Under the pieces are notes generated by a model. The model made no database searches. It was not told where the DNA came from and worked only from the letters and a program-made list of their open reading frames with translations. The position numbers and the translations under genes were made by a program. This document shows, in pieces, positions 419-48,234 of a stretch of 64,000 nt of DNA; within the stretch, counting starts at the first letter, position 1, and each line of letters begins with the position of its first letter. Source of the stretch: an uncultured delta proteobacterium (GTDB lineage Bacteria > Desulfobacterota > RBG-13-43-22); the NCBI GenBank assembly GCA_963790475.1, contig CAWBOS010000001.1:128001-192000 (forward strand). The letters run 5' to 3'.

Positions 419-952
419 TTGGCAAACAAACCAGGGACCCCCATCCTAAATCTCTTGAACTTCTGGAATCGGGGTCACCCATTAAGGGATTCCTCTATAG
501 CGGTGCCCCAGCTCATCAAAGACGGACAGGCCCCAAAGTTAAAGTGGGCTGGACAGTGGAACTCAAGATATGGGTGGGATTTTTTACTGTATGTGGAGAA
601 ACTCGACAAAGATTCCGCACAGATCGTCCAATCCTGGGGGGAGTATAACACTTCAAAAATGAGTTGCCATTGTGAACCGGATTGGGCAAGGGTGCAAAAG
701 GCCAAAGCAACTTATCGTGAAGGGAAGGCGACAATTGAATTTATTACACCCAATCTTCAAAGTCGCATCTTTAAAAGGAAAATGCACACGTTGTCCGGGG
801 AAAACGAAGGATGGGTCAGTAACAACCCCAAAGGCCATGGATATTACGACTTTTCTTATACAGTCAAAAAGAACGAGCCTAATATCATGAAAGGACATTT
901 CATAAGCGGGAAAAACAGTCATCTATTTATTGAAACGAAAAGGATTGATTAG
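419..952 (+). pseudogene. Chimeric hypothetical ORF; N-terminus contains an atuA-derived fragment
   Basis: 486-530 matches 28567-28611 (atuA) at 41/45 nt and follows the GGGGTC at 471; the remainder is unrelated. Confidence 0.5.
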
Positions 953-954
953 TA

Positions 955-1085
955 CGGGGGTTGGGATCAATGCTTAAACCATGACAATTTGAATTATTTA
1001 ATCCGGGGCGTTCTTGAATCGGCCCATTGCTAACCCTGTAGACCCTCGAAGCACCGAACCATCAGGCCACACAACCGACGGGCCC
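955..1085 (+). repeat. Repeat family A copy 1 (3'-truncated, no promoter module)
   Basis: CTTAAACCATGACAATTTGAATTATTTAATCCGGGGCG...GCACCGAACCATCAGGCCAC; another GGGGTC follows at 1095. Confidence 0.9.
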
Positions 1086-1243
1086 TTTTGAAAGGGGGTC
1101 GGGCCACGAGAACAAAATGAACTTACCTGGGATATTGAAAAATTTTCCCCTTTAAATAAGCCTGTAATGAGCTTTTTGAGACAAAAAAAGACAGTTTTCT
1201 CCCGGCCAAAGGAAGAGAAGTCATGGTTGGCGACAAACAGAAA

Positions 1244-2941: not shown

Positions 2942-3190
2942 ACAGAAAAAAATGTGGTTTGATAGGCGCGGGGTAACGGAGTCGGGCACAAAAACTAATT
3001 GTCCTGGGAGGGATTAAAGCTATCTGTGCCCTCTATGAATAATATAAAAAGAGAAAAGTAAAAAGGTAAAGGCGGGTTTCCGGCCCGGGGGAGAAATCAG
3101 GGAAGAAGACCATGAGTATCAGATAAGGAATCAGCAGTTATCAGGCCCGACCCTGGAACCGACTGGTTACCATCATAACCTGGAGATCCT

Positions 3191-4681
3191 ATGACTAAAA
3201 ATATCAGCGAACAATTGCAGCCTATTTTCAACGCGAGATCGGTGGCCGTGATCGGGGCTTCGAGTGCTCCCTTCAAGTGGGGTGCGCAAACGGTTCATCG
3301 GCTGATCAACTTTGGCTTCCATGGAGCCGTTTATCCCATCCATCCTAAGGAGAAGGACATTCAGGGACTCAGGGCCTACCCTTCGGTGCTGGACGTAAAG
3401 GAGTGCATCGATCTGGCGGTGATAACCGTGCCGGCGGAACGGGTCCCCCGGTCGATAAAAGAGTGTGTAAAAAAGGGGATCAGGGGCGCCATCATTATTT
3501 CGGCGGATTTCGCGGAAACCGGTGCGCGCGGTCGCGCTCTCCAGGAGGAAACCACGGAAATCGCACGGCAAGGAGGTCTCCGATTCGTGGGACCGAATTG
3601 TTTCGGACTTTTTAATTCCTCCAATGGTTTAAATACCCTTCCGACGGTTCCGGCCAAGGGAGAGATCGGTTTTATCTCTCAGAGCGGTTCCCTGGTGCAC
3701 ATGGTCGCCAGCGTCGCCTCAGCCAAAGGGTATGGGTTTAGTAAGCTGGTCAGCGCGGGGAATCAGGCCGACCTGGACGTCGCCGATTACCTGGAGTTTA
3801 TGGGGGAAGACCCGGAAACAAAATCCATCGTTATCTACCTGGAGGGTTTCAAAGACGGACGGAAATTCCTGAAGGTCGCCAGAGAAATCGCCGCTAAAAA
3901 GCCGGTCGTTATTTACAAGGCCGGGCGCCATCCCGGCAGCAATCGCGTATCCATGTCTCATACCGCCAATATGACCGGAGAGGACCGGGTCTTCGAAGCC
4001 ATGTGCCGCCAGGCCGGACTCATCAGGGCCAACACGCTGCAGGCCACTATGGATATGGCGGCCATATTGACCAAACAGCCCTCCCCCCATGGAAACCGGA
4101 TCGGGATTCAGGGGACCGGCGGCCAGTGCATGATTTTGACGGATACCTGCCTTTCTCTGGGCCTGGAAGTTCCGGAACTATCCGATGAAGAGGCGGAACA
4201 GGTGATATCCGGAATCGATTTTCCGGCCCATGCTCCGTTTCCCAGAAATCCGATTGACTTTGCCGGCAGTCATACGGCCCTGATGGATGCGACCGTCATT
4301 AATAACCTGGCCCGGCTGGACAAGATCGACGCCATCATTTCCTATCGGCCGGTCACCTTTCACCGTGAGTCAAGTGATTCTCCGGAACAGGTCGAGGAGA
4401 TGGACCGGAAAGTCGGAGAGTTATTGGCTGAAGCCCCCTGGAAATATGGGAAACCCCTGATTCTCATCGGCTTTGATCAGGCCATTAAAAACGAGGTGTT
4501 GCGGGGAAGTGAAATAATCGATCAGGCCTTAAAAGAGGCGGGCATATTGAGTTTCCTGACTCTGGAAGATGCGGCCGGGGCCATGCAGGCCCTGGTGAGC
4601 TATGCAAACATTAAAAGTAGAAATCGGGGACCAGACCAAGGGATTAAATTTTCAAAGAATTATACAAGAAGTGATGGGTAA
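3191..4681 (+). CDS. Acetate/acyl-CoA ligase (ADP-forming) alpha subunit, CoA-binding protein
   Basis: SVAVIGAS, GPNCFG, SQSG, SAGNQAD, SHT phospho-His motif, NPID. Confidence 0.9.
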   Translation: MTKNISEQLQPIFNARSVAVIGASSAPFKWGAQTVHRLINFGFHGAVYPIHPKEKDIQGLRAYPSVLDVKECIDLAVITVPAERVPRSIKECVKKGIRGAIIISADFAETGARGRALQEETTEIARQGGLRFVGPNCFGLFNSSNGLNTLPTVPAKGEIGFISQSGSLVHMVASVASAKGYGFSKLVSAGNQADLDVADYLEFMGEDPETKSIVIYLEGFKDGRKFLKVAREIAAKKPVVIYKAGRHPGSNRVSMSHTANMTGEDRVFEAMCRQAGLIRANTLQATMDMAAILTKQPSPHGNRIGIQGTGGQCMILTDTCLSLGLEVPELSDEEAEQVISGIDFPAHAPFPRNPIDFAGSHTALMDATVINNLARLDKIDAIISYRPVTFHRESSDSPEQVEEMDRKVGELLAEAPWKYGKPLILIGFDQAIKNEVLRGSEIIDQALKEAGILSFLTLEDAAGAMQALVSYANIKSRNRGPDQGIKFSKNYTRSDG

Positions 4682-4689
4682 AAGAGACC
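4652..4689 (+). repeat. Short repeat family C copy 1
   Basis: 34/38 nt identical to 12895-12932; both copies lie at gene 3' ends. Confidence 0.75.
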
Positions 4690-4755
4690 TTAAGCCGGCT
4701 TTTTATCCCCAAAAAGAAGCCTTTAAGAGGAATACCGATTCTGTGCAGAGGTAGG

Positions 4756-4776
4756 GGGTCAGGTTCAGAATCTTGC
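4756..4776 (+). repeat. 21-bp junction repeat GGGTCAGGTTCAGAATCTTGC
   Basis: Exact copy at 25279-25299. Confidence 0.8.
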
Positions 4777-5594: not shown

Positions 5595-5850
5595 TGGAGA
5601 AGGCCATGGGGTCTCGGGGGCAAATTTTAAACCATGACAATTTGAATCATATAATCCGGGGCGTTGTTGAATTGGTATATTGCGAACCCTTAAGACCCCC
5701 AGAGCACCGAACCGTCCGGCCACGCCACCAACGATTCAAAGAATGGTTTTCGATTCCTGCCTGAATGAAGAAGACGCCCTCCGTCCCTTTGGCTTTGCCT
5801 TATTTTTCCCCTTGATTCTGTCTTTTTCTTGATTTAAACTCCTATCATCA
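5595..5850 (+). repeat. Repeat family A copy 2 with promoter TTGATT(5812)-17-TAAACT(5835)
   Basis: GGGGTCTCGGGGGCAAATTTTAAACCATGACAATTTG... through the promoter module. Confidence 0.9.
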
Positions 5851-5881
5851 ATCTTATCAATTCTTATCTACAGTATATTGG

Positions 5882-9007: not shown

Positions 9008-9237
9008 ACCAAATTCCTCTCCATTAAGGTAAAACATGACAAACCATGAGAAAGATCGAGATGCTTTTGATAAGTTAGCGGATGCCTGGAGAAGCCTTCC
9101 GGAGGACCGGCGAAAGCGGATATTTATAGCTCTTCCTGTCTGTGAGCCAAGTCGATTTTCGGATGTCCCTCCTGACCCTGAGGAGTTGAACTTTATCTAA
9201 GAAATCCTTTTTTTAGCACGGCAGTGCATTGACATAT

Positions 9238-9484
9238 GGGAGAAGGGTCAAGTTTACGTTTGACTTTTATTGTGGGGTCTCGAGGTCAGCCATTAAAAGG
9301 CCACGACAAAGTGGGGGAGGTCGGGTCTAGTTTCTTGACATTGTGCAAAAACCAGGGACAGCGCCCGTTTCTTCACCTCCCTTTCTTTTAATGGAGAAGA
9401 AGACGCCATTCGTCTCCTTATCTTTCGATTTGCTTTTCTCCTTGCCCCGGTCCTTTTGTTGCCTTATACTTTTCCCATTCAAAA
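9238..9484 (+). repeat. Repeat family B copy 1 with the shared 5' junction and promoter TTGCCC(9442)-17-TATACT(9465)
   Basis: 9332-9470 is near-identical to 16214-16351; 9238-9290 resembles 25338-25390 and 26278-26330. Confidence 0.9.
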
Positions 9485-9554
9485 CCTAGACTTCTCGGAT
9501 TTTCGGGAGACAGGTGTTTCAAAATTTTTAGTATTAACTGGAGAGGAAAAACCA

Positions 9555-10772: not shown

Positions 10773-11382
10773 GGGAGATTATCCGGCAGGGAAATAAAAT
10801 GAAATTGTAATGAAATTGAATGAATGAAATTGGAGTCGGGCCACAGGAACTATTTATATCGCCTTTCGATTCGATCAAAACGGAAAGTGGATCGGAAGCA
10901 CCAAGACCCGGATACACATTATCTCCGGCCCTGGAGACAATGAATTTAGGGGCGTGGCCAAAGTCAGCACACGCGACTTGAAGGATGATGAGATTGGGAC
11001 GTCCGAAGTGCGTCTTGAGGGAAAACGTATCCAGGTTGAGCCATTCTGACATCACGCTTTACGGCGTGACCTTGGGTCAACCTGAGGTGTAGCGTTGCCC
11101 CATACCTGTTTAATGTTTTTGGGTTAAAATCTAAGTAGGGTGTCCCCCGATTTCACATGGCCCCGGGGTCTGGAGATTTACTTGACGAATGGATAAAAAA
11201 GTCAATGATTCGGAAACCGACTACAATGCTTTCCTGGTTTCGGGACACTCTTCAGTGCAAAAAATTGGGAAGATTTTAACAAAAAATAGTAAAAGGATTA
11301 AAATAGGGATCAAAACATTTAAACTGAGAGTCGAATTACTTAAAAAGGGAATCAAAGGAAATATAAAGGATACCTAAAGCAT

Positions 11383-11820: not shown

Positions 11821-12099
11821 TTAGCCCTCACTGTCTTCGAAGAATCGCCCGGAATAGGTGAAGGCCTGAGGGGAAAGGGTCAAGCTAAGCCCATTAACTT
11901 TTATATCAATATCCATGCCAAAAGGGGTGTCCTCTTGGCGCATGATCCCATGAACTCCCTTAGCAGCCTGATCCCTTTTGTCGTCTGACTGGAAAGGCTC
12001 CCGGATTAAGGGTTCAAGACCGCCTTCCATTTGGACAAGGAATTTACCGAAAATTTTAGGGGACATTGTTCTGAATTGACTAAAGGGAAGCGGCGTCAA
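11821..12099 (-). CDS. Hypothetical protein (possible fragment abutting repeat A3)
   Basis: ORF only; its start coincides with the repeat junction. Confidence 0.3.
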   Translation of the reverse strand: MTPLPFSQFRTMSPKIFGKFLVQMEGGLEPLIREPFQSDDKRDQAAKGVHGIMRQEDTPFGMDIDIKVNGLSLTLSPQAFTYSGRFFEDSEG

Positions 12100-12330
12100 A
12101 TCTTAAACGGCAATTTGAATTATTTAATCCGGGGCCTTGTTGAATCGGTATATCGCGGACCCTGTAGACCACCAAAGCACCGAACCGTCAGGCCACATGA
12201 CTGACGGGCCTAAGAAGGTCTTTCGATTCCTGCCTGAAGGGAAAAAGGATCACTATCTACTCCCTTGCCTTCACCCCTGCTTTTCCCCTTGACCGAGCCT
12301 TTTCCTTTCCCTATACTCTTTCTATCAAAA
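12091..12330 (+). repeat. Repeat family A copy 3 with promoter TTGACC(12289)-17-TATACT(12312)
   Basis: CGGCGTCAAATCTTAAACGGCAATTTGAATTATTTAATCCGGGG... through TATACTCTTTCTATCAAAA. Confidence 0.92.
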
Positions 12331-12398
12331 AGGGAGTTCTAATCAAAAAAAGCTGTCCCCCTCGGTTTTACACTCCTCAACGGGAAAAAAGGCGATCA

Positions 12399-12890
12399 AT
12401 GGTCTACGTTCTGATGGGAGTTTCGGGGAGCGGAAAAACCACGGTAGGAAAGCTGCTTGCCGAAAAGCTCGGCATTCCTTTTATCGACGCCGACGATTTC
12501 CATCCGACCTCGAATATCGAAAAAATGAGGAACAAGATCCCGCTCAACGATGATGACCGCGCTCCCTGGCTCGCCGCGATCGCCGGGAAAATGCGCGAGG
12601 CAAACGCAGCGCGGGGCGCGGTCGTGGCCTGCTCGGCGCTCAAGGAAAAATACCGGAAATTGCTTAGGGGCGGCAGCCCGGCAATACGTTTCATTTTCCT
12701 AACGGGCGACAGGGAGTTGATCGGCCGTCGCCTTCTGCAGCGGCGCGGCCATTATATGCCGCCAGATCTCCTTGACAGTCAGTTTGCCGCGCTGGAAGCG
12801 CCCGAAGATGGCCTCGCTGTTTCCGCGGATAAGTCGCCTCCTGAAATATGCGATGAAATCATCAAGCGGCTGGATAGGCAAAAAGATTAA
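12399..12890 (+). CDS. gntK: Gluconokinase (GntK/IdnK family)
   Basis: MGVSGSGKTT, DADDFHP, PLNDDDRAPWL, ACSALK, LLDSQFAALE. Confidence 0.93.
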   Translation: MVYVLMGVSGSGKTTVGKLLAEKLGIPFIDADDFHPTSNIEKMRNKIPLNDDDRAPWLAAIAGKMREANAARGAVVACSALKEKYRKLLRGGSPAIRFIFLTGDRELIGRRLLQRRGHYMPPDLLDSQFAALEAPEDGLAVSADKSPPEICDEIIKRLDRQKD

Positions 12891-12894
12891 ACTC

Positions 12895-12932
12895 TCAAAG
12901 AATTATACAAGAAGGGATGGGGGAAAGAGGCC
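12895..12932 (+). repeat. Short repeat family C copy 2
   Basis: 34/38 nt identical to 4652-4689. Confidence 0.75.
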
Positions 12933-13057
12933 ATAAAAGTGAACAATATGACACAAGAAACCATTTGGTCAATAGGTCTTTTTTAAGAACGGAGATTGAC
13001 TTTTTTTGAATGGAGTAGCCCTGCCGGCGGGGTTTTAGGCGTTATTGTCGATTCCGG

Positions 13058-15871: not shown

Positions 15872-16199
15872 GTATTGGCCATTCTGTCCCTCTATCAATC
15901 CCCTTATCATTGATTAAATTGGGGTCGGGCCTAATGCCGAATGGATTTAAATGGGCCAGGTGGAGAAATCTTTGGAGAGTCCAGATTCCGGAATACCTGA
16001 CGGCTTCCCTACAGAACATTCTAATCCTGATTCATCATGTCAAAGAACAAAGGCCGGCAGGGGCCAATAGGAGCTTGAAACTAAATCCGAAAAGGTTATT
16101 AATCCGTCTGGCCAATTGTTTTTGGGGAGAATTTCCTTTTAGCTACCTTCCCAAGTCAGTTTTTGCTAACCCTTATGATTCTTAAATTAGATTTTGAGC

Positions 16200-16352
16200 A
16201 ACAGACCCCTGTTTTCTTGACATTCTAAAACCAGGGACAGGGCCCGTTTTTTCACCTCCCTTTCTTTATTAATGGAGAAGAAGACGCCATTCGTCTCCTT
16301 AACCTTCGATTTGCTTTTCTCCTTGCCCCGGTCTTTTTCTTGCCATATACTC
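16200..16352 (+). repeat. Repeat family B copy 2 with promoter TTGCCC(16323)-17-TATACT(16346)
   Basis: TTCTTGACATT...CCAGGGACAG...AATGGAGAAGAAGACGCCATTCGTCTCCTTA, shared with copy B1. Confidence 0.9.
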
Positions 16353-16471
16353 TTATACAGTTGTCCCTTATTAAGGCATTTTACAACAAACCATCCTAAT
16401 CGACTCGTAACTCAGCGGCTGAATTTTGTGTCCTCAATTATCTTCATTTCCTATTAAAGGAGACACCACCA

Positions 16472-18053: not shown

Positions 18054-18238
18054 TTGGAGTCAAAGAGAAGAGGGAGGATGCTTTTGTGTTAATCAAAGCG
18101 ATCCCGGAGGTATACTTGCCTGATATAGTGGAATATTTCCGAATCCTGACCGGGCTTTAAGGAAATTGATAAACCGAATTGATTTGGGAAGTTCTTTCCA
18201 TTGGGGCGTAGGACCATGAACGATAATATGAAAGGAGG

Positions 18239-19293: not shown

Positions 19294-20133
19294 ATGGGGA
19301 AATTAGAAGGGAAAGTGACCATTGTGACTGGAGCGAGCTGAGGTATCGGTAAAGCCATATCCAAGCTCTTCGCAGCCGAAGGGGCTAAGGTCGTTTGTGC
19401 TGCTCGCACCCTGGACGAAGGGGAGCATGTTTTCGAGGGTTCTCTCAACACGACGGTTTTAGAAATCCAGCAGGCTGGAGGCACTGCTTTAGCCGTACAG
19501 ACCAATACAGCCTCCGAGAATAGCTGTATCAAACTCGTTCAGACTGCCAAGGAAACCTTCGGTCCTGTCGATGTCTTGGTTAATGATGCGGCCCTTACTT
19601 ATTTTATCCCCATTAAAGACATGGGGGTACATCAATGGGATCGTTCCTGGGCGGTCGGTCCACGGGCTGTTTTTATCCTGTCTAAAACGGTGCTGCCGGA
19701 TATGATCGAACGCCGTAGCGGAGCCATCATCAACATTTCTTCCGGTGCAGCGATTGGACCAGGGCGTGGACCTTATCAACCAACTACCCGAAGCAGTACC
19801 AAGTACGGGGCTGAAAAAGCAGCCATAGAGCGTTTCTCTCAAGGACTGGCTGAAGAGGTTTACCCCTATGGTATAACCGTGGCGGCTTTGTCTCCTTCGC
19901 AGGTTGTGGTCACCCCAGGCACGGTCTATTTCAAATTAACCGCTCCTGAAAATCCGGACAGCGAGCCCCCGGAGATCATGGCCAGAGCAACCGTCCTTCT
20001 TGCCACCGAGCCGCTCGACAAAGTTACCGGTCTGGTCACTTATAGCCAGGCCATTCTCAAGGAGTATGGCTGGATCAGCAATGGTAAGGGCATTGGCATC
20101 GACCGACCAGGTAGCGGATACAGCCAGCGGTAG
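19294..20133 (+). pseudogene. SDR oxidoreductase with an internal TGA at 19339-19341
   Basis: MGKLEGKVTIVTGAS*GIG (Arg position of TGASRGIG), in frame with ORF 19576-20133 (YGAEK). Confidence 0.8.
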
Positions 20134-21023: not shown

Positions 21024-21764
21024 GTGGAACGGGAGATGTCCATCCATCCTGATGACAAAGAACTGGTGAAATCTCATCTTGAAATAGTCCCCCAAGAAGC
21101 TAAACTCCACAACTTGGAATTCCGGATTATCACCAAGGAAGGTGGACACTGTTGGATATTACATTCTTGCCTCCCGGTCCACAATGATCAAGACCAATAC
21201 ATCGGTCGGTCTGGGACGAACCGGGAAATAACCAAAGGAAAGCAGGCCGAGGAGGCGCTGCAACTGGCACACGATGAACTGGAACAGCGTGTGGCTGCAA
21301 GGACGGAGGAGTTGCGGCAGGCCAATAAGGATCTACAGGCAGAAATCACCGAGCGCAAACGAACCGAAGAGGCACTCCTGGAATCCGAAACCCGTCTTCG
21401 GTGGTTGAACGAACATATTCTGAACATGGTCATGGTCCTGTCTCATGATGTCAGGGGGCCATTGATCTCCATCGTCGCCATCTTGCAACTTTTGTTTCGA
21501 GGCTCCTACGGAAAGCTGGATCAAAATCTGGCCAACACCGTCAAGGACCTTTTGTCCCGTTGCCTCCGCCTGCTGGGGACTGCGGAAGATTACATAGGGA
21601 AAGCCTCCATTGTCGACGGCTCAGTAAAAATGGAACGGGAGGTGCTGGACCTGCGACAGGATATCATCGATACCGTGCTGGACGAACTGGCTGACGATAT
21701 CACTAAGAATGAGATTGTGATCGACAATATGGCCCTACATTTCTTTGCGTATTTCGAATGGTAA
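21024..21764 (+). pseudogene. PAS / histidine kinase fragment (no HATPase domain)
   Basis: Partial PAS_3, ELEQRVAART coiled coil, LSHDVRGPL H-box, then truncated. Confidence 0.75.
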
Positions 21765-22096: not shown

Positions 22097-23753
<1,657 letters not shown>

Positions 23754-23765: not shown

Positions 23766-24122
23766 TTATTCTATTACGCCTAAGATGTCTTCTTCTCGCA
23801 TCATTAAAAATTCTTCGCCTTCAATCTTTATTTCGGTCCCGGAATATTTTCCGAATAAAATTTTGTCCCCCACCTTGACATCCAGTGTCAATTTAGTCCC
23901 ATTTTCCAAGATCTTACCTGGCCCTACGGCAATAACCTTGCCTTCTTGGGGTTTTTCCTTGGCGGTATCCGGGATAATAATTCCTCCTTTGGTCTTTTCT
24001 TCTTCCTCAAGCCTTTGGGGTTTTTCCTTGGCGGTATCCGGGATAATAATTCCTCCTTTGGTCTTTTCTTCTTCCTCAAGCCGCTGTACAATGACCCGAT
24101 CATGTAATGGCCTAATTTTCAT
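23766..24122 (-). CDS. groS: Co-chaperonin GroES with a 23-aa internal tandem duplication
   Basis: [24 protein letters not shown] twice, GKYSGTE. Confidence 0.95.
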
Positions 24123-25278: not shown

Positions 25279-25392
25279 GGGTCAGGTTCAGAATCTTGCC
25301 CATGCCTTGCAAATTCTAGCTGAAATCTCAAAGCTAATGGAGAAGGGGTCAAGGCCAGGTGTGACTTTTATCATGGGGTCACGGGGTCACCC
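25279..25392 (+). repeat. Cluster of GGGGTC junction motifs
   Basis: 21-mer shared with 4756; GGGGTC at 25345, 25375 and 25383; 5' module shared with 9238 and 26278. Confidence 0.8.
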
Positions 25393-26268: not shown

Positions 26269-26277
26269 ATTGAATCT

Positions 26278-26520
26278 TGGGAGAAGGGTCAAGTCTATGG
26301 TTGACTTTTCTTACCGGGTCTCATGGACAAATCTTAAGCCATGGCAATTTGAATCATTTAATCCGGGGCGTTGTTGAATCGGCATATTGCGAACCCTGTG
26401 GACCAGCAAAGTCTCGAACCGTCAGGCCACATGACCGACGGGCTAAAGCAGGCCTTTCGATTCCTGCCTAAATGGAGAAAGGATCACCATCTTCTCCATT
26501 TCCTTCCGCACTATTTTTCT
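26278..26520 (+). repeat. Repeat family A copy 4 (has the fullest 5' module; promoter degenerate)
   Basis: GAGAAGGGTCAAG..TTGACTTTT..GGGTCTCATGGACAAATCTTAAGCCATGGCAATTTG... ; begins 10 nt after the M55 stop. Confidence 0.9.
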
Positions 26521-26613
26521 TCGTGGCCCTCCCTTTTTTTAATAAGCTTACTGTCAATAAGTAATTTTTTATTAAACTGAGTGCCACGACTCAGGGGGTT
26601 GTGTTAAATCTCC

Positions 26614-27750: not shown

Positions 27751-27856
27751 CGGCTTCGTGGTGAATCGAGAGGGTTGTAAAATTTCTCATAAGCCAAAAG
27801 GGCGCATTTATTTGGGATCAGGGGTCGGACCACCTGAACTGAAAATTTCATCATTA

Positions 27857-27905
27857 TTTCTCCTTGCTCCGGTCCTTTTCTTGACTTATACTCTTCCCAT
27901 CAAAA
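27857..27905 (+). promoter_or_regulatory. Solo promoter module TTGCTC(27864)-17-TATACT(27887)
   Basis: Near-identical to the 3' end of B1, B2 and A6; GGGGTC at 27821. Confidence 0.8.
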
Positions 27906-27970
27906 ATGAAATTCCGGCCAAAAGATTCTTATTTATCACTCCTTGACGGATTCTTCCAGGGAGGTCAACC

Positions 27971-28437
27971 ATGACCAGTAGCGCCTAAAGAACTCAATCG
28001 CAGGAAATTGGTGGTTTATACGCACCCCAATATTCCTCCGGGTAGTGACGTGCCGAAGCTCGGCTGGCCGGCGCCTCTGGTAGAGTTTGTTTTTGATACA
28101 ACCAGAGCGGTGACCAACCTGGTTTTGAATGGTACTGGCCGAAACTTCCCCGCTGTTGAGAGAGATTGCTCCAAAAGGAGTCATTGCCTATCTCAAGGGA
28201 TTCTATTATGACACCGCTCTCTCGGTGACACCCTATGCGCTTCCGTGTCTTCGGACCCTGGCTGACTCCTCACACATCGTGTTTGGCAGCGATTATCCTT
28301 TTACCCCGGAGCCGGAGTTGTCGATGGGAAAGACGGCGGAAAACCTTCATCGGTATGGGTGCTTTGACAAAGAAGAGCTCATGGCGGTGGAGAGAACCAA
28401 TGCCTTAAAACTTTTTTCCCGGCTCCGCGAGAATTAG
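27971..28437 (+). pseudogene. Amidohydrolase (ACMSD-like decarboxylase) remnant with internal deletions
   Basis: GGAGG+ATG, then VVYTHP...FDTTRAVTNL and, in another frame, FYYDTA...FGSDYPF. Confidence 0.8.
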
Positions 28438-28517: not shown

Positions 28518-30311
28518 ATGAAAAGGAAAAAGGCCATACGTATCGGGGGCGCCTCGGCGTTTTTGGGGGATTCCTCCATAGCGGTGCCCCAGCTCATCCA
28601 AGGTGGACAGGTTGATTATATTATCATGGATTATTTGGCCGAAGTGACCATGTCCTATCTGGCCCGGTCGAAGGCCAAACGCTCCCACATGGGCTACGCC
28701 CCTTATTTCGTGGAGGTCACCATGTCCCAAAATATCCGGGAGATCGCCGGAAGGGGAATTAAAATCGTGACTAATGCCGGAGGTATAAATCCCCAGGCCT
28801 GTCGCGACGCCGTTTTGAAGATAGCCGATCATCAGGGGGTCAAGGTCAACATTGCGGTGGTCGAAGGGGACGATCTGATGCCCCGCCACGCGGAACTGGC
28901 GGCCCGTAATATCACCGAAATGAACACCGGGGAACCCTGGCCGGAAAAGATGATGAATATGAACGCCTACCTGGGCGCCCAACCGATCAAAGAAGCCCTG
29001 GATATGGGTGCCGATATCGTGATTACCGGCCGGGTGGTGGACAGCGCCCTGACCCTGGGACCTCTGATGCATGAATTCGGGTGGCCTGAGACCGACTATG
29101 ATCTGCTGGCCGCCGGAAGCCTGGCCGGGCACATCATTGAATGCGGGGCCCAGGCTTCCGGCGGGTTATTCACCGATTGGCAGGAAGTTCCCGACTGGGC
29201 CAATATCGGATACCCGGTAATCGAATGTTACCAAGACGGCCGTTTCGTGGTAACCAAACCGGTTGATACCGGGGGGCTGGTGGTCCCCGCCGCCGTCTCG
29301 GAACAAATGCTTTACGAGATCGGCGATCCCCAGATCTACCTTTTACCGGATGTGACCGGCGATTTTTCGCAAGTCCGGATGAACCAGATAGGGGAAAACC
29401 AGGTGGAAGTCTCCGGGGCCGTCGGCCGGCCTCCGACATCGACCTATAAGGTGTATGGGGCCTTTCATGACGGCTACCGCTGCATTGCCGTATTGCCGGT
29501 GATCGGCATGCAGGCCGTTCAAAAGGCCGAACGTCAGGCCAGGGCCCTTATTGAAAGGACCGAAGCCATTTTCCAAAAACAGAGTTTCGGTAAATACCGG
29601 GCCACGCTGATCGAATGCCTGGGGGCCGAATCCGCCTATGGTCCGCATGCCCGGACCAGAGATACCCGGGAAACCGCCTGTAAAATTTCTTTGGAACATG
29701 ACCTCCGGGAGCCTCTGGAAATCTTTGCCAACGAGGTCTTCGCCCCCACCACATCCATGGCGCCGGGCACCACCGGCTGGTTTGCCGGTAAACCAGCCGT
29801 ATCCCCGGTGATCAAGCTCTTTTCCTTTCTAATTCCCAAAGGGGAAGTCCCTTTTCAGGTCACGGTGGGGGAACAGAAACGGTCTTTCAGGCCGGAACCA
29901 GGGAACACCTTTGATCCGGGCTCGATTGTCCGACCCCGGGTGGAAGACGCCGGACAGGCTCCGGGGGATCTCCTTACCGTTCCTCTGATTCGACTGGCCT
30001 GGGGACGCAGCGGCGATAAGGGGAATTCATGCAATATCGGCATCATCGCCCGGAAGCCGGAATTTCTGCCTTTCATTCGTAAGGCGCTCACCCCCTCGGC
30101 CGTTCATCAATTTATGAACCATGTGTTCGACGGGGCCAAAAATCCGAGAGTGGAGCGATTTGATCTGCCGGGCGTCCGGGCCTTGAACTTCGTACTGCAT
30201 GAATCTCTGGGGGGCGGGCAAGCGGCCTCGTTGCGCCTCGATCCGCTGGCCAAGGGAATGGCCCAGCAACTTCTGGAATTCCCGATCCCCATTCCGGCTT
30301 CGCTGCTTTAA
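28518..30311 (+). CDS. atuA: Acyclic terpene utilization AtuA family (DUF1446)
   Basis: DYLAEVTM, NAGGINP, TGRVVDSA, GHIIECGAQASGG, GRSGDKGN, DPLAKG. Confidence 0.92.
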   Translation: MKRKKAIRIGGASAFLGDSSIAVPQLIQGGQVDYIIMDYLAEVTMSYLARSKAKRSHMGYAPYFVEVTMSQNIREIAGRGIKIVTNAGGINPQACRDAVLKIADHQGVKVNIAVVEGDDLMPRHAELAARNITEMNTGEPWPEKMMNMNAYLGAQPIKEALDMGADIVITGRVVDSALTLGPLMHEFGWPETDYDLLAAGSLAGHIIECGAQASGGLFTDWQEVPDWANIGYPVIECYQDGRFVVTKPVDTGGLVVPAAVSEQMLYEIGDPQIYLLPDVTGDFSQVRMNQIGENQVEVSGAVGRPPTSTYKVYGAFHDGYRCIAVLPVIGMQAVQKAERQARALIERTEAIFQKQSFGKYRATLIECLGAESAYGPHARTRDTRETACKISLEHDLREPLEIFANEVFAPTTSMAPGTTGWFAGKPAVSPVIKLFSFLIPKGEVPFQVTVGEQKRSFRPEPGNTFDPGSIVRPRVEDAGQAPGDLLTVPLIRLAWGRSGDKGNSCNIGIIARKPEFLPFIRKALTPSAVHQFMNHVFDGAKNPRVERFDLPGVRALNFVLHESLGGGQAASLRLDPLAKGMAQQLLEFPIPIPASLL

Positions 30312-31945: not shown

Positions 31946-32261
31946 GCTTGCATATTTCAAACAGTCATCGCTAACTTTCCGGTCTATCTTCTTATTACAT
32001 TTTTGGGGGTTAGCGATAATCTTGGCTGCCAGGTGCAAATTTTAGGACTGGAAATTAATAGCCCCCGTTTATTAATAAAAAATCAGTTGGGATTTTTTTT
32101 GGTTTGGAAGATAATCTAAATTTAAGATAAATGAGTTGTTATTAGAAAAAAATGATCGGGGTCGGGTTTCCGTTGAACATATTATGCCCTGTGCTTTGAC
32201 GGAAATTGATATTGGTGAGCTTACCAAGGAGGATTGAAAGCTCAATCTGCTCAGGATTCTC

Positions 32262-32531
32262 GTGGATAAAGGCGCTGAGGTCAATGTGGCGAACCAGGAG
32301 GGGATTACAGCTCTTCACCTTTCGTCAGGTAATGGTGCGATCGAATGTGTTCAGTTCCTGATAAATCGCGGAGCCGATGTAACACTCCAAGCGAAAAACG
32401 GAATGACGGCCATGGACATGGCCTTGAAGAATGGTCATGAAGAGACAGCCGAGATATTGAGGGAGGCGATGAAGAAGCAGGAAAGTTGGAAAGCGGGGTC
32501 GGACCAGGCGACCGATTCCGTCCATCCGTAA
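32262..32531 (+). pseudogene. Ankyrin-repeat fragment
   Basis: GAEVN..GITALHL, GADV..GMTAMDMA; ends in a GGGGTC junction (32495). Confidence 0.75.
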
Positions 32532-36158: not shown

Positions 36159-36239
36159 CCCCCATCATAATAAAAAGAGTTGATCTGTAGCCGGTAAACC
36201 GTTTTCATTCTGTCTCTTATCTTTCCCCTTTTTTTCTCC

Positions 36240-36268
36240 TTGATCATGTCTTTTGGTTATTTTATACT
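36240..36268 (+). promoter_or_regulatory. Promoter module TTGATC-17-TATACT upstream of the MerB-like gene
   Basis: Same layout and flanks as the repeat B 3' end. Confidence 0.7.
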
Positions 36269-36318
36269 TTCGCCATGAAGAAGCAACTTCTTATTAATTG
36301 GAAAGGAGGAACTAAGGT

Positions 36319-40449: not shown

Positions 40450-40455
40450 AATAAT

Positions 40456-41190: not shown

Positions 41191-41936
41191 ATGCTTATGA
41201 ATGATCAGCGCGTTCAGGTTCCTCAAAAGGCCTGGTACGGAGACTCGGAGATTGAATTGAGTTTTCCTGAAGACTGGCAGGTAAAATACCAGGCCATGCC
41301 GGTTGAAAAAAGACCCAGGGCAAGTCATCAGAGGTTATCTCCACCGAGCAGAACGCCGGGGCAGCGGCCCTGATGGCCGAGTACAACGGTCTGGACCGGT
41401 ATCCGCATATTCAGGAAAAACTGGCCTGGCTGGCCATGCACGCCAAGATTGTCGACGTCATGGCCCAGGCCGGATGCGAGCACCCGACCGTCTATCCGGA
41501 TATTAATCTGGTGGCGCCCAACGTCATGTACACCAATATTGCCAAGTACATGTTTGCCAATGATCAGCATGAGACATCAAAACTGGTCGGGGACATCACC
41601 GGCGGGATCGCCTCCACCGTGTTCACCTACAAAGACTGGATGAATCCTGAGGAAAGACCCCATATCGAGAAATACCTGGCCGGAAAAGACGGCATCCCGA
41701 CCGAAGACCGGCTGAAAGCCATTCGGATGGTCAAGGATCTCATCGGCCACGGCCACGATAATGTAACCATTCATGCGGAAGGCTCTTTGGCCTCCCAAAA
41801 GATGATGATCTATTCCTCGGCAGAATGGAAAAAATACAAAGCCATTGCCAAGAGGATCGCCGGAATTAAGGGTTGGAGAGAGGACGCCCCGGATATGGCG
41901 GACTTGCCGGACTGGCCGGGTGAAAAGATTATTTAA
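41191..41936 (+). pseudogene. Chimeric remnant: lactate racemase (LarA)-like N-terminus joined to a 4-hydroxyphenylacetate 3-hydroxylase / 4-hydroxybutyryl-CoA dehydratase C-terminus
   Basis: VPQKAWYGDSEIELSFPEDWQV, then in another frame AALMAEYNGL..HIQEKL..DITGG..IHAEGS. Confidence 0.7.
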
Positions 41937-44690: not shown

Positions 44691-44691
44691 T

Positions 44692-45945: not shown

Positions 45946-45969
45946 AGGGATCGCCTTTTCAGACCGGCG

Positions 45970-46003
45970 TGGAGAATGAGGTCTGGGAGGCAAATTTTAA
46001 ACC
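45970..46003 (+). repeat. Repeat family A 5' stub
   Basis: TGGAGAATGAGGTCTGGGAGGCAAATTTTAAACC resembles 5595-5633. Confidence 0.6.
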
Positions 46004-46338
46004 TTGCCCTTTGCCCACCGTTAGGATGCCTTAAATTGGCCGGGGACCTTGTGCTCACCTATCCCCGACCAGGGCGAACCTATGAGCCGATATTACGGCT
46101 TCCATATAATGTCTCTCGGGATCTGGAAATACCGGCTTTATTTTAATAAAATACATAGTTCGCCTCATATCTTTTAAAAAACACATCCTTTATCTTAGAA
46201 ATTAAAACTCCCGGCACCAGGTGCGGAGAATAAGGGAGCAGGTATTCTTTTGGCTCAGTTTTTTTGTTGGCAACCTTTACCAAAGTAAACTCAAGGGAAT
46301 GATAATAGCCCCCATTTCTTAAATGAGAGACTTGCCAG

Positions 46339-48234
46339 ATGAGAGATAATGAAAAGACCAAAGACCAACTTATCAAGGAGCTAAATGATCTGCGATGGAG
46401 AGTTGTTGAACTGGAAAAGTCTGAAACCGAGCGCCGGCAGACCGAAGGGGATATTAAAAATTTAGCGAAGTTTCCCTCCGAAAACCCTAATCCTGTGCTA
46501 CGCGTAAATCAAGGGGGTATTGTCCTGTATGCGAACGAAGCCAGTAAAACCCTGTTCCGAGATCGGCAGTGTGAAGTGGGCGGCTATGCTCCTGCATTAT
46601 GGTGCAATTTATTTATTGATGCCTTCAAAGACCAGTCTCAGAGAACCGTTGATGTTCAATTGGGTGAGAAGTTTTATACGTTTGATATTACACCGATCCC
46701 CAATACTGACTATGCCAACCTTTATGGTCGTGACAACACCGAACGCAAACGAGCGGAAGATGAAAACAGGCGCAACGAGGCACGGCTGGAAAGCCTCCTG
46801 AAAATATCTCAGTATCGCGCCGACTCGACCCAAGAGCTTCTGGATTTTGCCCTGGAAGAGGCCATTGCCCTCACAAACAGCAAGATCGGCTATGTTTACT
46901 TCTATGACGAGACCAAGAAAGAGTTCATTCTCAACACTTGGTCCAAAGAAGTCATGAAGCAGTGTACCATTGCCGAGCCCCAGACTGTTTATCACCTTGA
47001 TAAGACCGGGATCTGGGGAGAGGCCGTGAGGCAGGCCAAACCGATCATTGTCAATGATTTCCAGGCGACCCATCCACTAAAAAAGGGATACCCTGAAGGC
47101 CATGCTCCCCTCTATAAGTATATGACCGTTCCCGTTTTTTCCGATGACCGCATCGTGGGAGTTGTAGGCGTGGCCAATAAGGAAACGGACTATGACTTCT
47201 CCGATGTGCGCCAACTCACCCTGCTCATGGACTCGGTCTGGAAAATATTCGAACGCAAGCAGACCGAGGAGGCACTGCGCGAAAGTGAGCAGCGCTACCG
47301 CAGTTTGTTTGAGTCGATGGACGAGGGATTCGCCCTTTGTGAGATGATCTATGACCTACAGGGCAAGCCGATAGACTTCCGTTACCTGGTCGTCAACCCC
47401 GCCTTCGGCAAACTGACGGGCCTGCCGGTTGATCAGCTCGTAGGGCGAACGGTGAAAGAAGTGATCCCAGGGATCGAGTCTTTCTGGATTGAGTCTTTCG
47501 ACAGTGTGGTGCAGAGCGGTCGGGATGAAAGGTTCAACAACCCCGTGGCGGAACTGGGGAAGGATTATGAAGCATACGCCTGGCGCTCGGATGTCGGACG
47601 ATTTGCGGTGGTCTTCAGCGACGTAACGGAGCGCAAACGGGCAGAGGAGACTCTCAAGGCCTTATCTCTCAAAGATGATCTGACCGGCTTATATAACCGC
47701 CGGGGTTTCTTTGCTTTGGCTGAGCAGGGATTGAAGGCGGCGCAACGGATGGGAAAGGAAATGTTACTTATTTATGGAGACTTGGACAATTTTAAGGGGA
47801 TAAATGATGCCATTGGTCACCAAGAAGGCGATCAGGCCTTGATTGATATATCCCATATCCTTAAAGAGACTTTTCGGGAATCAGATATTATCTCCCGCTT
47901 AGGGGGAGATGAATTTGTCATTCTGGCCATGAATAATATTGAGGACGCAGCTGAAATACTGATCAATCGTTTTGAGAAAGTTTTGAGTGACCACGATCTC
48001 CAAAGAAAACGCCCTTACAGGCTCTCCATGAGCCTGGGAATTGTCAATTTTGACCCACAAAGCCCTTGCTCCATCGATGACCTGCTTGCCCAGGCGGACA
48101 AGATGATGTATGAGAATAAACAAAAAAGACAAACCAAGAAAGATAGGATCAAAAAATGGCCCAACCTTTCTCAGGCACATTTCAAACAGCATGGATCGGG
48201 GTCAAATGGATTGTGGGCAAATCTTAAACCATGA
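46339..48234 (+). CDS. PAS/GAF/PAS diguanylate cyclase
   Basis: ENPNPV PAS, GAF, PAS, DDLTGLYNRR, RESD I-site, GGDEF; C-terminus reads into repeat A5. Confidence 0.93.
   Translation: MRDNEKTKDQLIKELNDLRWRVVELEKSETERRQTEGDIKNLAKFPSENPNPVLRVNQGGIVLYANEASKTLFRDRQCEVGGYAPALWCNLFIDAFKDQSQRTVDVQLGEKFYTFDITPIPNTDYANLYGRDNTERKRAEDENRRNEARLESLLKISQYRADSTQELLDFALEEAIALTNSKIGYVYFYDETKKEFILNTWSKEVMKQCTIAEPQTVYHLDKTGIWGEAVRQAKPIIVNDFQATHPLKKGYPEGHAPLYKYMTVPVFSDDRIVGVVGVANKETDYDFSDVRQLTLLMDSVWKIFERKQTEEALRESEQRYRSLFESMDEGFALCEMIYDLQGKPIDFRYLVVNPAFGKLTGLPVDQLVGRTVKEVIPGIESFWIESFDSVVQSGRDERFNNPVAELGKDYEAYAWRSDVGRFAVVFSDVTERKRAEETLKALSLKDDLTGLYNRRGFFALAEQGLKAAQRMGKEMLLIYGDLDNFKGINDAIGHQEGDQALIDISHILKETFRESDIISRLGGDEFVILAMNNIEDAAEILINRFEKVLSDHDLQRKRPYRLSMSLGIVNFDPQSPCSIDDLLAQADKMMYENKQKRQTKKDRIKKWPNLSQAHFKQHGSGSNGLWANLKP

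Follow-up and report, generated by a model that had tools for sequence, protein, structure and literature searches.

Short GGGGTC motifs recur at or near gene boundaries along a 64,000-nt stretch of DNA (hereafter, the window) from an uncultured delta proteobacterium (genome G000; contig CAWBOS010000001.1, here C1, positions 128,001 to 192,000). Do these motifs mark points where genes were joined, cut or exchanged? An earlier note had read them as strand-biased junctions of a very large array that carries metabolic and signalling cargo and is served by an HUH/Y1 transposase in trans. All 15 of its exact + strand GGGGTC positions are present, and the exact 21-mer that it saw recurring at 4756 and 25279 was confirmed. 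The window contains 53 GGGGTC matches versus 48.64 ± 6.44 in shuffled sequences (33 of 100 shuffles reach 53), divided 27 to 26 between the + and - strands, and the whole-genome tally is 1988 GGGGTC and 2058 GACCCC. An excess was seen in intergenic DNA (16,572 nt, 25.9% of the window, on the basis of a curated list of 51 ORFs), which holds 13 of the 27 + strand matches (binomial p = 0.014); 30 words of the same composition average 3.6 there, and the overlapping words CGGGGT, GGTCGG, GGGTCG and GTCGGG are likewise high. The + strand hexamer is enriched between genes because it belongs to longer repeats. The intergenic + versus - count (13:8, p = 0.38) was not significant. The presumed strand bias was thus found neither overall nor between genes, and the presumed enrichment held for the intergenic + strand word only. 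By comparison, GGGGTCGGRCC with at most one mismatch occurs 12 times in the window versus 4.08 ± 1.84, a count reached by 0 of 100 shuffles. The hexamer itself is not special, and the real signal is GGGGTCGGRCC(A)..., the outer 11-30 nt of a TIRtron terminal inverted repeat (TIR). The 20 sites of the earlier note were assigned accordingly:

1095, 2978, 10832, 15921, 27821, 32158 and 32495: TIR-type (GGGGTCGGRCC-type) sites, n = 7
5608, 9274, 25345/25375/25383, 48198 and 56870: at or near the edge of a ~300-nt repeat, the head, n = 7
4755: the 21-mer, n = 1
471, 4626, 11165, 18056 and 43514: inside a gene or without longer context, n = 5

The two copies of the 21-mer are as follows:

4755-4776, + strand: copy 1, GGGGTCAGGTTCAGAATCTTGC, 74 nt past the CoA-ligase gene stop, fitting the published GGGGWSAS
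25279-25299, + strand: copy 2, an exact repeat

TIRtrons and their proteins, the TIRYTs, were described by Di Nocera, De Gregorio and Rocco 2013 (PMC3733652) and form subclass 2.1 of Quentin et al. 2018 (PMC6006769). In the available text of these papers, a TIRtron is one gene enclosed by inverted repeats rather than a direct array; the names used are TIR, TIRtron and TIRYT, and the consensus GGGGWSAS fits 'the majority' of TIRs (PMC3733652; PMC6006769). This bears out the earlier note's point that a GGGG(A/T)C-type terminal repeat accompanies a subclass of Y1/HUH enzymes (PMC3733652; PMC6006769). The terms 'STIR' and 'stiron', offered as established, could not be upheld: among the papers listed, the literature search gave no relevant use, and none in bacteria for HUH transposases. 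Our word GGGGTCGG fits GGGGWSAS at 7 of 8 positions (position 7 is G, not A); all 8 are matched by the 21-mer at 4755 and by the paralog end at C12:179921 (GGGGTCAG). A search returned 48 loci, 35 of which were examined. In 15 of the 35, an ORF of 263-264 aa has GGTCGGRCC about 110-116 nt 5′ of its ATG and the reverse complement 16-19 nt 3′ of its stop, so that the suggested search for Y1 genes flanked by inverted end motifs proved positive among intact relatives of the truncated Y1 gene next to the window. When left and right ends were aligned, the terminal repeat measured ~30 nt and was imperfect. The sequence beyond it was not conserved, and the element is ~0.93 kb long. Intact TIRYT relatives score 35-39 bits with Pfam Y1_Tnp (cut-off 23), and their best NCBIfam family is REP_Tyr_transpos (REP-associated tyrosine transposase) at 69-73 bits, below the equivalog cut-off of 80. 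The proteins are ~120 aa longer than the Y1 domain, and Pfam at E <= 0.01 gives Y1_Tnp alone; a C-terminal helix-turn-helix-like extension is described for subclass 2.1 (PMC6006769, in part). These features identify the GGGGTCGGRCC-type sequence as the terminal inverted repeat of a TIRtron predicted to encode a RAYT-like Y1 HUH protein (TIRYT).

Within the window, with its 51 ORFs, seven ends were found, mostly stubs of 11-36 nt: a left end standing alone, a miniature relic with both ends, and five short stubs.

1095-1236, + strand: solo TIRtron left-end relic, GGGGTCGGGCCACG..., aligning along the entire left end to a decayed start codon
2978-3154: geneless miniature TIRtron with inverted TIR-like ends 177 nt apart, GGAGTCGGGC... 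(+, 2978) and AGGGTCGGGCC (-, 3144-3154)
10832-10853, + strand: TIR stub GGAGTCGGGCCACAGGAAC..., one mismatch, 60 nt past the acyl-CoA dehydrogenase gene stop
10854-11068, + strand: 5′-truncated gene copy, 94% identical to the 3′ part of a gene at C1:122891-123105
15921-15931, + strand: TIR core stub GGGGTCGGGCC, 50 nt past the response-regulator/PAS/HD gene stop
27821-27856, + strand: 36-nt TIR stub GGGGTCGGACCACCTGAAC..., 71 nt past a stop codon and adjoining a P2 promoter module
32158-32168, + strand: short stub GGGGTCGGG, 27 nt 5′ of an ankyrin relic
32185-32479, + strand: internally deleted ankyrin pseudogene; of a 262-aa gene, ~55 nt from the 5′ region and the final 250 nt remain
32495-32505, + strand: TIR core GGGGTCGGACC, 16 nt beyond the ankyrin homology; the stop is lost, so the ORF runs through

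Every unpaired end is co-directional with the genes, and 47 of the 51 ORFs lie on one strand. Four of the five short stubs begin 16-71 nt beyond the point where the upstream coding sequence ends, and the one at 32158 lies 213 nt past a stop. A miniature multi-copy element beginning at 32495 was rejected, the 160-nt stretch being single-copy in G000.

Several ORFs had been thought to lose their C-terminus at the motif. One gene copy is genuinely cut there, that at 10854-11068, to which the 22-nt stub at 10832 is joined by its inner side. In two cases the idea fails. The ankyrin ORF supposedly cut at 32495 still has its natural C-terminus, and what it has lost is internal; the 262-aa gene is intact in G005:C30, and it has ends on both sides in G000 and in G005. 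The GGDEF domain of the diguanylate cyclase supposedly cut at 48198 is complete, and the ORF continues for ~30 codons into a head. An assignment of ORF 419-952 as an AtuA fragment was rejected, the match covering 16 residues (45 nt) only.

The window is part of a variable island, at about C1:119-206 kb, in which gene fragments abound, and TIRYT/TIRtron relics stand at both borders of its region. Outside the window lie the following relics:

C1:119023 and C1:122457: solo TIRtron left ends
C1:125070-125792: truncated TIRYT gene just outside the window, Y1_Tnp 22.5 bits, with the NHIHLL (HUH) motif and the Tyr region kept
C1:125811: right end after the truncated TIRYT gene, inverted

G000 yielded no intact TIRYT of the matching subfamily, only TIRtron relics; among 13 genus relatives, three match TIRYT at E <= 1e-20, and all copies are partial or stop-containing. 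G000 has an intact 285-aa Y1 paralog (C12:179921) with a GGGGTCAG-type end, and this protein could be the enzyme acting in trans. The proposal of such an enzyme has a candidate in this intact paralog, and not in the matching subfamily.

A separate second feature, the head, accounts for seven of the 20 sites. It is a ~300-nt, genus-restricted intergenic repeat, the commonest in the window; its 5′ edge reads GGGKTC in degenerate form, and it finishes in a sigma-70-like promoter. Its copies, variants and separate modules are:

958-1094, + strand: head copy 1, cut off by the element relic at 1095 (nhmmer hit C1:128955-129186)
5606-5863, + strand: head copy 2, GGGGTC at 5608, 3′ promoter-like TTG...-N17-TATA..
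9228-9493, + strand: variant head in which a hairpin module and GGGGTC (9274) come first and an inverted repeat and the P2 promoter module follow
12084-12340, + strand: head copy 3, P2 promoter TTGACC-17-TATACT at 12289-12317
16227-16374, + strand: variant head with P2 module, 90% identical to 9331-9473
25329-25388, + strand: hairpin module, then tandem GGGGTCAC GGGGTCAC (25345, 25375, 25383)
26269-26565, + strand: head copy 4, preceded by a hairpin module and beginning right after the M55 peptidase gene stop
27857-27915, + strand: P2 promoter module TTGCTC-17-TATACT, 90% identical to 57026-57084
36233-36291, + strand: solitary P2 promoter module
48198-48448, + strand: head copy 5, GGGGTC at 48198, P2 TTGACG-17-TATACT at 48397-48425; the cyclase ORF enters by ~30 codons
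56870-57084, + strand: head copy 6, opening with GGGTCGATCTTAAACC one base past the AMP-ligase gene stop
58538-58700, + strand: head copy 7, 5′ part only

The GGGTC edge was exact in 6 of 11 copies inspected, and most intergenic repeat families in the window open with a GGGKTC-type word directly 3′ of the upstream gene. The P2 module matches sigma-70 at 10 of 12 positions, has a conserved inverted repeat upstream and is present, often in many copies, in 13 of 13 same-genus genomes; most likely the head supplies predicted promoters to downstream genes. A second promoter within the head (TTGAAT-17-TATAGA, read by eye) was rejected, as the scanner missed it and it is without T at position 6. Comparison of the head with TIRtron ends or with the G043-G045 arrays detected no homology (best E 2.6). 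Head and TIRtron resemble each other only in the GGGKTC edge, which is degenerate, and in 12 nt that look alike by eye. No conserved RNA structure was detected in the head on either strand (consensus energies -0.08 and -2.92 kcal/mol, no compensatory pairs), and Rfam (gathering thresholds) and tRNA searches of the window gave no matches.

Genome-wide, GGGTCGGRCC has 73 matches in G000 versus about 20 expected, and about 20 of the 73 are TIR-like beyond the core; C1, with 4% of the genome, carries 12 of the 73 (p = 3.5e-5). On 27 occasions GGGGTCGG follows a co-directional stop codon by no more than 150 nt, while 56 words of the same composition, itself included, average 7.2, the next highest reaching 14. 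Sites between co-directional genes run 27 with the genes and 11 against (p = 0.014), a moderate bias. Replication-strand bias was rejected as the cause of the uniform orientation, with 32 of 63 sites on the G-rich strand and both strands intermixed on the complete G044 chromosome. Single-stranded DNA folding of ends and heads was no better than in shuffles (z -0.6 to +0.3), with no hairpin.

End clusters were seen in five genomes other than G000, and related genomes hold 5-15 same-strand ends with cargo between them. Clusters of 15, 8, 7 and 5 occur in G043, G045 and G044, and in G010:C29 8 of 8 intergenic ends lie on the gene strand, 24-119 nt past stops. The sharp junction evidence stems from G043, an order-level relative, and not from the window. 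In the G043 array, whose cargo is small ORFs on both strands, including toxin-antitoxin genes, seven homology starts lie 1-9 nt ahead of an end and at least nine homology stops lie 4-19 nt ahead of the next end. Its units are near-identical (97-100%) and permuted in order, A-B-C versus B-A-C. The 15 heads of G043 correspond to the right end together with the 3′ terminus of the TIRYT gene, and every one breaks off at the same inner point. Genes at the edge of this array encode a methyltransferase and a flippase, and no integrase is found there. G000 and G010 share scattered gene-sized blocks at 83-95% identity; their boundaries coincide with gene boundaries and are therefore not independent evidence. 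These results indicate that the motif-enzyme link and the arrays are real, and the earlier reading as a whole is partly supported. Same-strand clusters with genes between them do exist in relatives. The window itself could not be sustained as an actively mobilised cargo array, given 7 of 20 sites of TIR type, heads without TIRtron homology and no intact matching TIRYT in G000.

The explanation we favour, about equally likely in our judgement to hold or to fail, is that a TIRYT acting in trans would insert TIR-ended units, in one orientation, beside gene 3′ ends or existing ends. Later deletions and exchanges would leave orphan ends behind, so that the outer edge of each end would be a junction of unrelated DNA. 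We observed the identity, placement and orientation of the ends, the junctions in one related array, and the same cargo gene bracketed in two species; the acting enzyme, the strandedness of the reaction and a transfer of the window's long metabolic genes by ends are what we infer. A passive history is unlikely, though a serious contender: independent TIRtron insertions in a tolerant island would have decayed, with IS-type adjacent deletions of the gene and one end, while genes between ends would be residents that never moved and heads would have spread by ordinary segmental duplication. Many pseudogenes and fragments in the region (SDR, GroEL, amidohydrolase, HpaB, glycyl-radical enzyme, PAS/HisKA) agree with it, as do the two-ended and gene-bearing TIRtron relics, the partial or stop-containing enzyme copies in 3 of 13 genus relatives, and the stub fused to a truncated gene at 10832, as an adjacent deletion would give. 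In one case a head copy and the 3′ portion of a GGDEF gene were clearly duplicated together (47626-48354 and 57981-58695, 71%). However, random decay predicts both orientations, and the clusters are 15/15, 8/8, 8/8 and 7/7 same-strand with no replichore effect; the permuted near-identical units with breakpoints at the end's edge, and the sharp inner boundary common to 15 G043 heads, also speak against it. That single inner cut point is unaccounted for by the explanation we favour as well.

It seems to us quite unlikely that a TIRYT cassette system exists in which units of a ~30-110-nt end plus cargo would be excised and inserted where an existing end has its GGGG outer edge. If true, it would mean same-strand toxin-antitoxin arrays in some Desulfatiglandales-type genomes, promoter-equipped metabolic and signalling genes as cargo in this genus, and an integron-like shuffling device that uses an HUH nuclease in place of a tyrosine recombinase. 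Improbable is the claim that the window belongs to a very large, active array of integron type, whose cassettes of an end plus metabolic or signalling cargo would be excised and inserted in trans by a Y1/HUH enzyme at directly repeated GGGGTC sites. The relatives' arrays and junctions, the ankyrin gene bracketed in two species, the strand uniformity of the 51 ORFs, the gene-sized mosaic blocks scattered between species and the GGGKTC-type openings of most repeat families would suit it; yet the 51 ORFs come with just 7 TIR-type sites, a TIRtron origin of the heads could not be demonstrated and their edge is often inexact, the matching enzyme is not intact in G000, and TIRYT biochemistry is absent from the available literature text (PMC3733652; PMC6006769). 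That motif and heads are selected host regulatory DNA (terminator-proximal or operator/promoter), with the transposon-end likeness secondary, is very improbable. The P2 module, with its sigma-70 match, upstream inverted repeat and presence in all 13 same-genus genomes, would be expected on that account, and the ends sit where REPs do, which are able to affect mRNA ends (PMC3733652, in part); but GGGGTCGGRCC is demonstrably a mobile-element end in many orders, neither conserved RNA structure in the head nor hairpins in the ends were detected, and promoters would be explained, not permuted units or truncated genes. A classical integron, with attC sites and an IntI integrase, is scarcely credible. 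Co-oriented genes with a repeat between them recall one, and toxin-antitoxin cargo, typical of chromosomal integrons, occurs in the G043 array. The integron-integrase model TIGR02249 nevertheless gave at best 105 bits versus a cut-off of 265, with none on C1, and 14 of 14 control genomes give similar sub-threshold matches; the G043 array edge without integrase and the lack of hairpin potential point the same way.

TIRYTs are common in genomes, and the available text of the literature reports neither activity nor biological role for them (PMC3733652; PMC6006769). If orphan ends mark exchange points of accessory genes, this would give the enzyme class a function, provide a second, mechanistically unrelated cassette-like shuffling route beside integrons, and partly explain the mosaic accessory genome of these sediment anaerobes. 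On a modest reading, GGGGTCGGRCC-type stubs help annotators find rearrangement scars, truncated genes and island borders.

An integron cassette array consists of co-oriented units with one site each, attC sites (imperfect inverted repeats that form hairpins) and an IntI integrase. The arrays described here resemble it in co-oriented units with one ~30-110-nt site each, in permuted and duplicated units, in the toxin-antitoxin cargo of relatives and in junctions at a fixed point of the site; they differ in having no IntI, no attC hairpin and an associated enzyme of the HUH class. A literature search linking RAYT to integron cassettes, or Desulfatiglans to integrons, found nothing relevant among the papers listed. 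IS200/IS605 elements have subterminal hairpins at dissimilar ends and a strong replication-strand orientation bias, and ISCR-type elements (IS91/ISCR one-ended capture) can carry adjacent DNA. Common to both and to our ends are HUH enzymes at element ends and strand- and orientation-specific insertion by a short target, whereas the ends here are inverted, without subterminal hairpins or TnpB, and on the G-rich strand in 32 of 63 cases; the NCBIfam IS200 model scores 20 bits versus a cut-off of 55. REP/REPIN sequences with RAYT (Bertels and Rainey 2011, PMC3116915) likewise involve a single domesticated or low-copy Y1 enzyme and short extragenic repeats mainly 3′ of genes, but REPs are, in the available text, hairpin palindromes with a GTAG (or CGTC) tag, usually in inverted doublets (PMC3116915), and the ends here are same-strand singles without hairpin potential or, in alignments, GTAG. 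Relative to the available descriptions of TIRtrons, the consensus here has G at position 7 (GGGGTCGG) and the published GGGGWSAS has A; in their available text the papers describe grouped TIRs (PMC3733652; PMC6006769) but neither cargo-bearing same-strand arrays nor outer-edge junctions nor orphan right ends cut at one inner point, all of which are seen here. Shared with the published TIRtrons and TIRYTs are a RAYT-like Y1 HUH protein that exceeds RAYTs in length, a gene set at fixed distances between terminal inverted repeats that open with a GGGG word near GGGGWSAS, and a moderately abundant family of ends whose copies stand single, paired or grouped.

The 15 listed GGGGTC positions were all confirmed in the window, as was the exact 21-mer repeat at 4756 and 25279. 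The earlier note had read this hexamer as a strand-biased mark of gene junctions, and we compared it with 100 dinucleotide-preserving shuffles of the window. Results showed 53 copies (27 on the + strand, 26 on the − strand) against an expected 48.64 ± 6.44, and 33 of the 100 shuffles reached 53; genome-wide, GGGGTC occurs 1988 times and GACCCC 2058 times. With a near-expected count and an even strand split, the hexamer as such is neither enriched over the window nor strand-biased, and both of these claims fall. For its placement, 51 ORFs that were Pfam-supported or long (47 on the + strand, 4 on the − strand) were taken as genes, and the remaining 25.9% of the window was counted as intergenic. 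On the + strand 13 of 27 copies were intergenic (p 0.014; mean 3.6 for 30 same-composition words), so an intergenic enrichment held on that strand, but the strand asymmetry of 13:8 was not significant. Words overlapping GGGGTC were also high in intergenic DNA, which pointed to a longer word. The junction signal is real by way of that word; the hexamer alone is too short.

At a subset of sites the longer word reads GGGGTCGG(G/A)CC(A), the end of a TIRtron, a ~0.93-kb element with a Y1 HUH gene. As far as the consulted parts of the two papers go, RAYT-like genes flanked by terminal inverted repeats (TIRs) are named TIRYT or TIRtrons, their TIRs mostly fit GGGGWSAS, and TIR families occur single, dimeric or grouped (PMC6006769, PMC3733652). 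The association of GGGG-type repeats with a Y1 subclass, as given in the earlier note, therefore stands as TIRYT/TIRtron (PMC3733652, PMC6006769), but nothing relevant was found under the name "stiron" among the papers listed for it; the earlier note evidently meant TIRtrons and used wrong names.

A Pfam Y1_Tnp search of the source genome gave 20 matches, including a weak one at C1:125157-125372, 2.2 kb upstream of the window on the same contig. The match belongs to a 240-aa ORF (C1:125070-125792) beginning at profile position 45, in which the HUH and Tyr regions are preserved; directly behind its stop comes the longer word in reverse complement. Further relics on this contig were as follows.

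C1:119023, solo left end: word, promoter-like hexamers, then seven codons of the TIRYT gene start
C1:122457, solo left end with the same order of word, promoter-like hexamers and seven codons of the TIRYT gene start
C1:119171-119338, TIRYT C-terminal relic

An intact TIRYT of the matching subfamily was not found in the source genome, and TIRYT matches at E <= 1e-20 in 3 of 13 other same-genus genomes were all partial or carried stops. Scanning one genome per species yielded 48 TIRYT loci, titled Desulfatiglandales, Desulfobacteria, Syntrophales and others, of which 35 (L030-L064) were examined and 13 with partial matches were left out. The Y1_Tnp genes between inverted repeats that the earlier note had proposed to look for do exist in relatives: 15 of the 35 loci carry both ends around an ORF of 263-264 aa, GGTCGGRCC preceding the ATG by 110-116 nt and its inverse following the stop at 16-19 nt. 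The inverted repeat is ~30 nt long and imperfect, and the alignment showed no conservation beyond its GGGG edge. In Pfam the protein exceeds the Y1_Tnp cut-off (35-39 bits against 23); among NCBIfam families, REP-associated tyrosine transposase scores best (69-73 bits, below the equivalog cut-off of 80). Two other Y1 paralogs in the source genome are further TIRtron-like genes. One, of 328 aa (C6:806252-806572 region), lies between inverted GGGACGTTGTTCA. The other, intact and of 285 aa (C12:179921-180778), is preceded at a distance of 54 nt by a GGGGTCAG-type end that has four further copies, its GGGGTCAGGTCTATACTG-type end recurring at C6:545411, C12:141692, C12:145881 and C15:99822; it is a candidate source of an enzyme acting in trans.

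Genome-wide, GGGTCGGRCC has 73 matches against ~20 expected from base composition, and contig C1, 4% of the genome, holds 12 of them (p 3.5e-5). The TIR word makes up a small family, with 14 copies of the 12-mer GGGGTCGGGCCA where other words reach 70-150. The commonest 12-mers include a palindromic family of CCGGCGAAAGCCGG / GCCGGAATCCAG type (~70-150 copies) and what looks like a CRISPR array (~66-71 repeats). At most 150 nt after a co-directional stop, GGGGTCGG was found 27 times, against a control mean of 7.2 and a next highest value of 14 in a set of 56 words, GGGGTCGG included. The neighbours of 65 intergenic sites were co-directional on both sides in 27 cases, co/anti in 14, anti/co in 13 and both opposed in 11 (27 vs 11, p 0.014). 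Replication-strand bias was considered as a cause of this orientation and rejected, because the G-rich strand carries 32 of 63 sites (two tRNA-derived matches dropped), an even split.

Within the window, the 11-mer GGGGTCGGRCC with at most one mismatch has 12 matches against 4.08 ± 1.84 expected, a number reached in 0 of 100 shuffles; the six matches inside genes are probably chance. The following ends were recognized.

window 1095-1236, left end, aligned over its whole length; 1095 lies 143 nt after the preceding + strand stop
window 2978 (+) and 3144-3154 (−), miniature element, an inverted pair 177 nt apart
window 10832, 22-nt TIR stub with one mismatch, 60 nt after the preceding + strand stop

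Fused to the stub at 10832 is a copy, truncated at its 5' end (10854-11068, 94%), of the gene at C1:122891-123105. Sites 15921, 27821, 32158 and 32495 share 8-36 nt of the TIRtron end; 15921 and 27821 lie 50 and 71 nt after the preceding + strand stop, and 32495 lies 16 nt past the point where ankyrin homology ends. Of the sites listed in the earlier note, about a third are TIRtron ends, another third are at or near the edges of a separate, genus-specific repeat that bears a promoter, the head, and a quarter have no longer context.

Of the genes that the earlier note gave as cut at the motif, two proved otherwise. A related genome (G005:C30) holds an intact 262-aa ankyrin gene, of which the window copy retains ~55 nt of 5' region and the last 250 nt, with the natural C-terminus kept, the stop lost and the frame continuing through the motif. 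With the C-terminus present and the middle missing, the gene has suffered an internal deletion and was not cut at 32495. Nor is the diguanylate cyclase (46339-48234) truncated there: its GGDEF domain is complete, ~30 codons run into the head, and a paralog stops earlier. Two further cases are less clear: the CoA ligase, whose Pfam domains are complete but where a 61-nt segment (4633-4693) crosses the stops of two unrelated genes, and DUF3024, matched over profile positions 1-98 of 112, where the GGAGTC at 18056 lacks a TIR extension. Pfam coverage revealed further fragments at window 19576-20133, 21024-21764, 22097-23062 (−), 28129-28437, 41373-41936 and 52929-54371, a list that comprises the following.

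SDR, from profile position 81
PAS/HisKA without the ATPase
Cpn60, 241-489 of 490
amidohydrolase, last 73 positions
HpaB, C-terminal domain only
PFL-like glycyl-radical enzyme, profile 189-611 of 647

Several small repeats were also seen. A perfect 68-nt tandem duplication (23946-24082, two copies, 100%) lies beside broken chaperonin genes; the 61-nt segment near the CoA ligase stop (4633-4693 vs 12876-12936, 82%) takes in the stop codons of two unrelated genes whose registers differ; and a 45-nt scrap of AtuA 5' coding sequence (471-530 vs 28567-28611, 91%) lies 10 nt after GGGGTC at 471, inside a questionable 177-aa ORF that matches nothing in Pfam.

The head is an intergenic repeat of ~250-300 nt with seven window copies, all on the + strand. 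Its nhmmer profile has 29 matches in the genome; the 8 that cover at least 150 positions all fall within the 123-187 kb stretch of C1, on the + strand, and the remainder cover only the 3' part. That part contains an inverted repeat and a TTGAC.-17-TATACT site, scored 10/12 by the promoter scanner at 12289 and 48397; at the third scanned copy (26313) TTGACA-17-TATCGT was returned instead. Neither a conserved RNA structure in the head core nor an Rfam match for the head was found. The 5' edge starts at most ~45 nt from the upstream stop and carries GGGTC in 6 of 11 inspected copies, with one-mismatch variants in the rest. This degenerate edge accounts for listed sites 5608, 48198 and 56870, and a related hairpin module together with the head edge for 9274 and 25345-25383. 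The head profile gave no match to TIRtron loci or to the arrays of G043-G045, three other TIRYT-bearing genomes (best E 2.6), so kinship of heads with TIRtron ends is unproven. The promoter module occurs in the window at the following places.

window 9435-9493, 12282-12340, 16316-16374, 27857-27915, 36233-36291, 48390-48448 and 57026-57084, ~60-90-nt promoter module

Its -35, spacer and TATACT are conserved, and an inverted repeat of AATGGAGAA...TTCTCCATT type lies upstream of them. About 20 more copies are dispersed on both strands of the source genome, and copies are often clustered in same-genus genomes. Found in 13/13 same-genus genomes, 3/7 from other genera of the family and 0/20 from other families, the module has the look of a promoter cassette that was propagated or strongly conserved.

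Same-genus genomes match the window at 86-93% identity only in gene-sized blocks, on other contigs or in another order. One such contig (G010:C29, L082-L084, 10001-51769) is a gene-by-gene mosaic of 0.5-1.8-kb blocks with 83-95% identity to the source genome, mapping in scrambled order to at least nine places on C1, C6, C12 and C13. Its ORFs are all on one strand, all 8 of 8 intergenic GGGGTCGG sites lie on the gene strand 24-119 nt after a stop, and the unit order is stop, end, promoter module, next ORF. The 11-mer exceeded its reversed control in 5/5 TIRYT-bearing genomes, and same-strand clusters occurred in three.

G041, 11-mer 27, reversed control 15
G042, 4 and 0
G043, 33 and 9; same-strand clusters of 15 sites in 31 kb (single-strand chance 6e-5) and 5 in 27 kb (0.06)
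G044, 35 and 12; same-strand cluster of 7 sites in 29 kb (0.016)
G045, 19 and 6; same-strand cluster of 8 sites in 23 kb (0.008)

On the complete G044 chromosome, both site strands are intermixed over the whole length.

In the G043:C18 array the repeat is a ~110-nt unit, sharp at GGGG on its outer edge and sharp on its inner edge. Small ORFs of either strand lie between the units, among them PIN/Phd and PIN/VapB pairs and a DDE transposase; the array edges hold a methyltransferase and a flippase and no integrase. The G045:C721 and G044 arrays resemble it, with tandem duplications of the edge word. In self-comparison of the G043 array, the start of a homology falls 1-9 nt ahead of an end in seven cases, its stop falls 4-19 nt ahead of the next end in at least nine, and units with 97-100% identity are arranged A-B-C at one location and B-A-C at a second. 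These breakpoints and permuted units show that the outer edge is a real junction. The unit profile matched the right end and gene 3' end of the TIRYT relic in the source genome (C1:125820-125716, E 3.5e-10) but not the left-end relics, which identifies the G043 units as orphan right ends that are all cut at a single inner position; no simple model accounts for this. A perfect 56-nt-period tandem array (100%) also lies inside the G043:C18 array (L085/L086, 19070-19682 of the reverse-complemented 40 kb). Around the intact G005 ankyrin gene, one end lies 450 nt before the gene, and three end starts follow in tandem from 112 nt past its stop, all pointing in the gene direction; the same cargo gene is thus bracketed by ends in two species.

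An integron was rejected as an alternative: the best integrase score in the source genome is 105 against a cut-off of 265 bits, with none on C1, and ends and heads lack the hairpin potential of attC-like sites. Of the array proposed in the earlier note, the part that stands is in relatives, where same-strand orphan-end arrays with cargo and outer-edge junctions were observed. We infer that the TIR-end mechanism may have moved the long metabolic and signalling genes of the window, as the proposal would have it.

TIRtrons are a known but barely studied kind of element. In the consulted parts of the published accounts, a TIRtron is one gene between inverted repeats, and cargo arrays are not described there (PMC6006769, PMC3733652). 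A description of same-strand orphan-end arrays with cargo and outer-edge junctions was not found in the searched literature.
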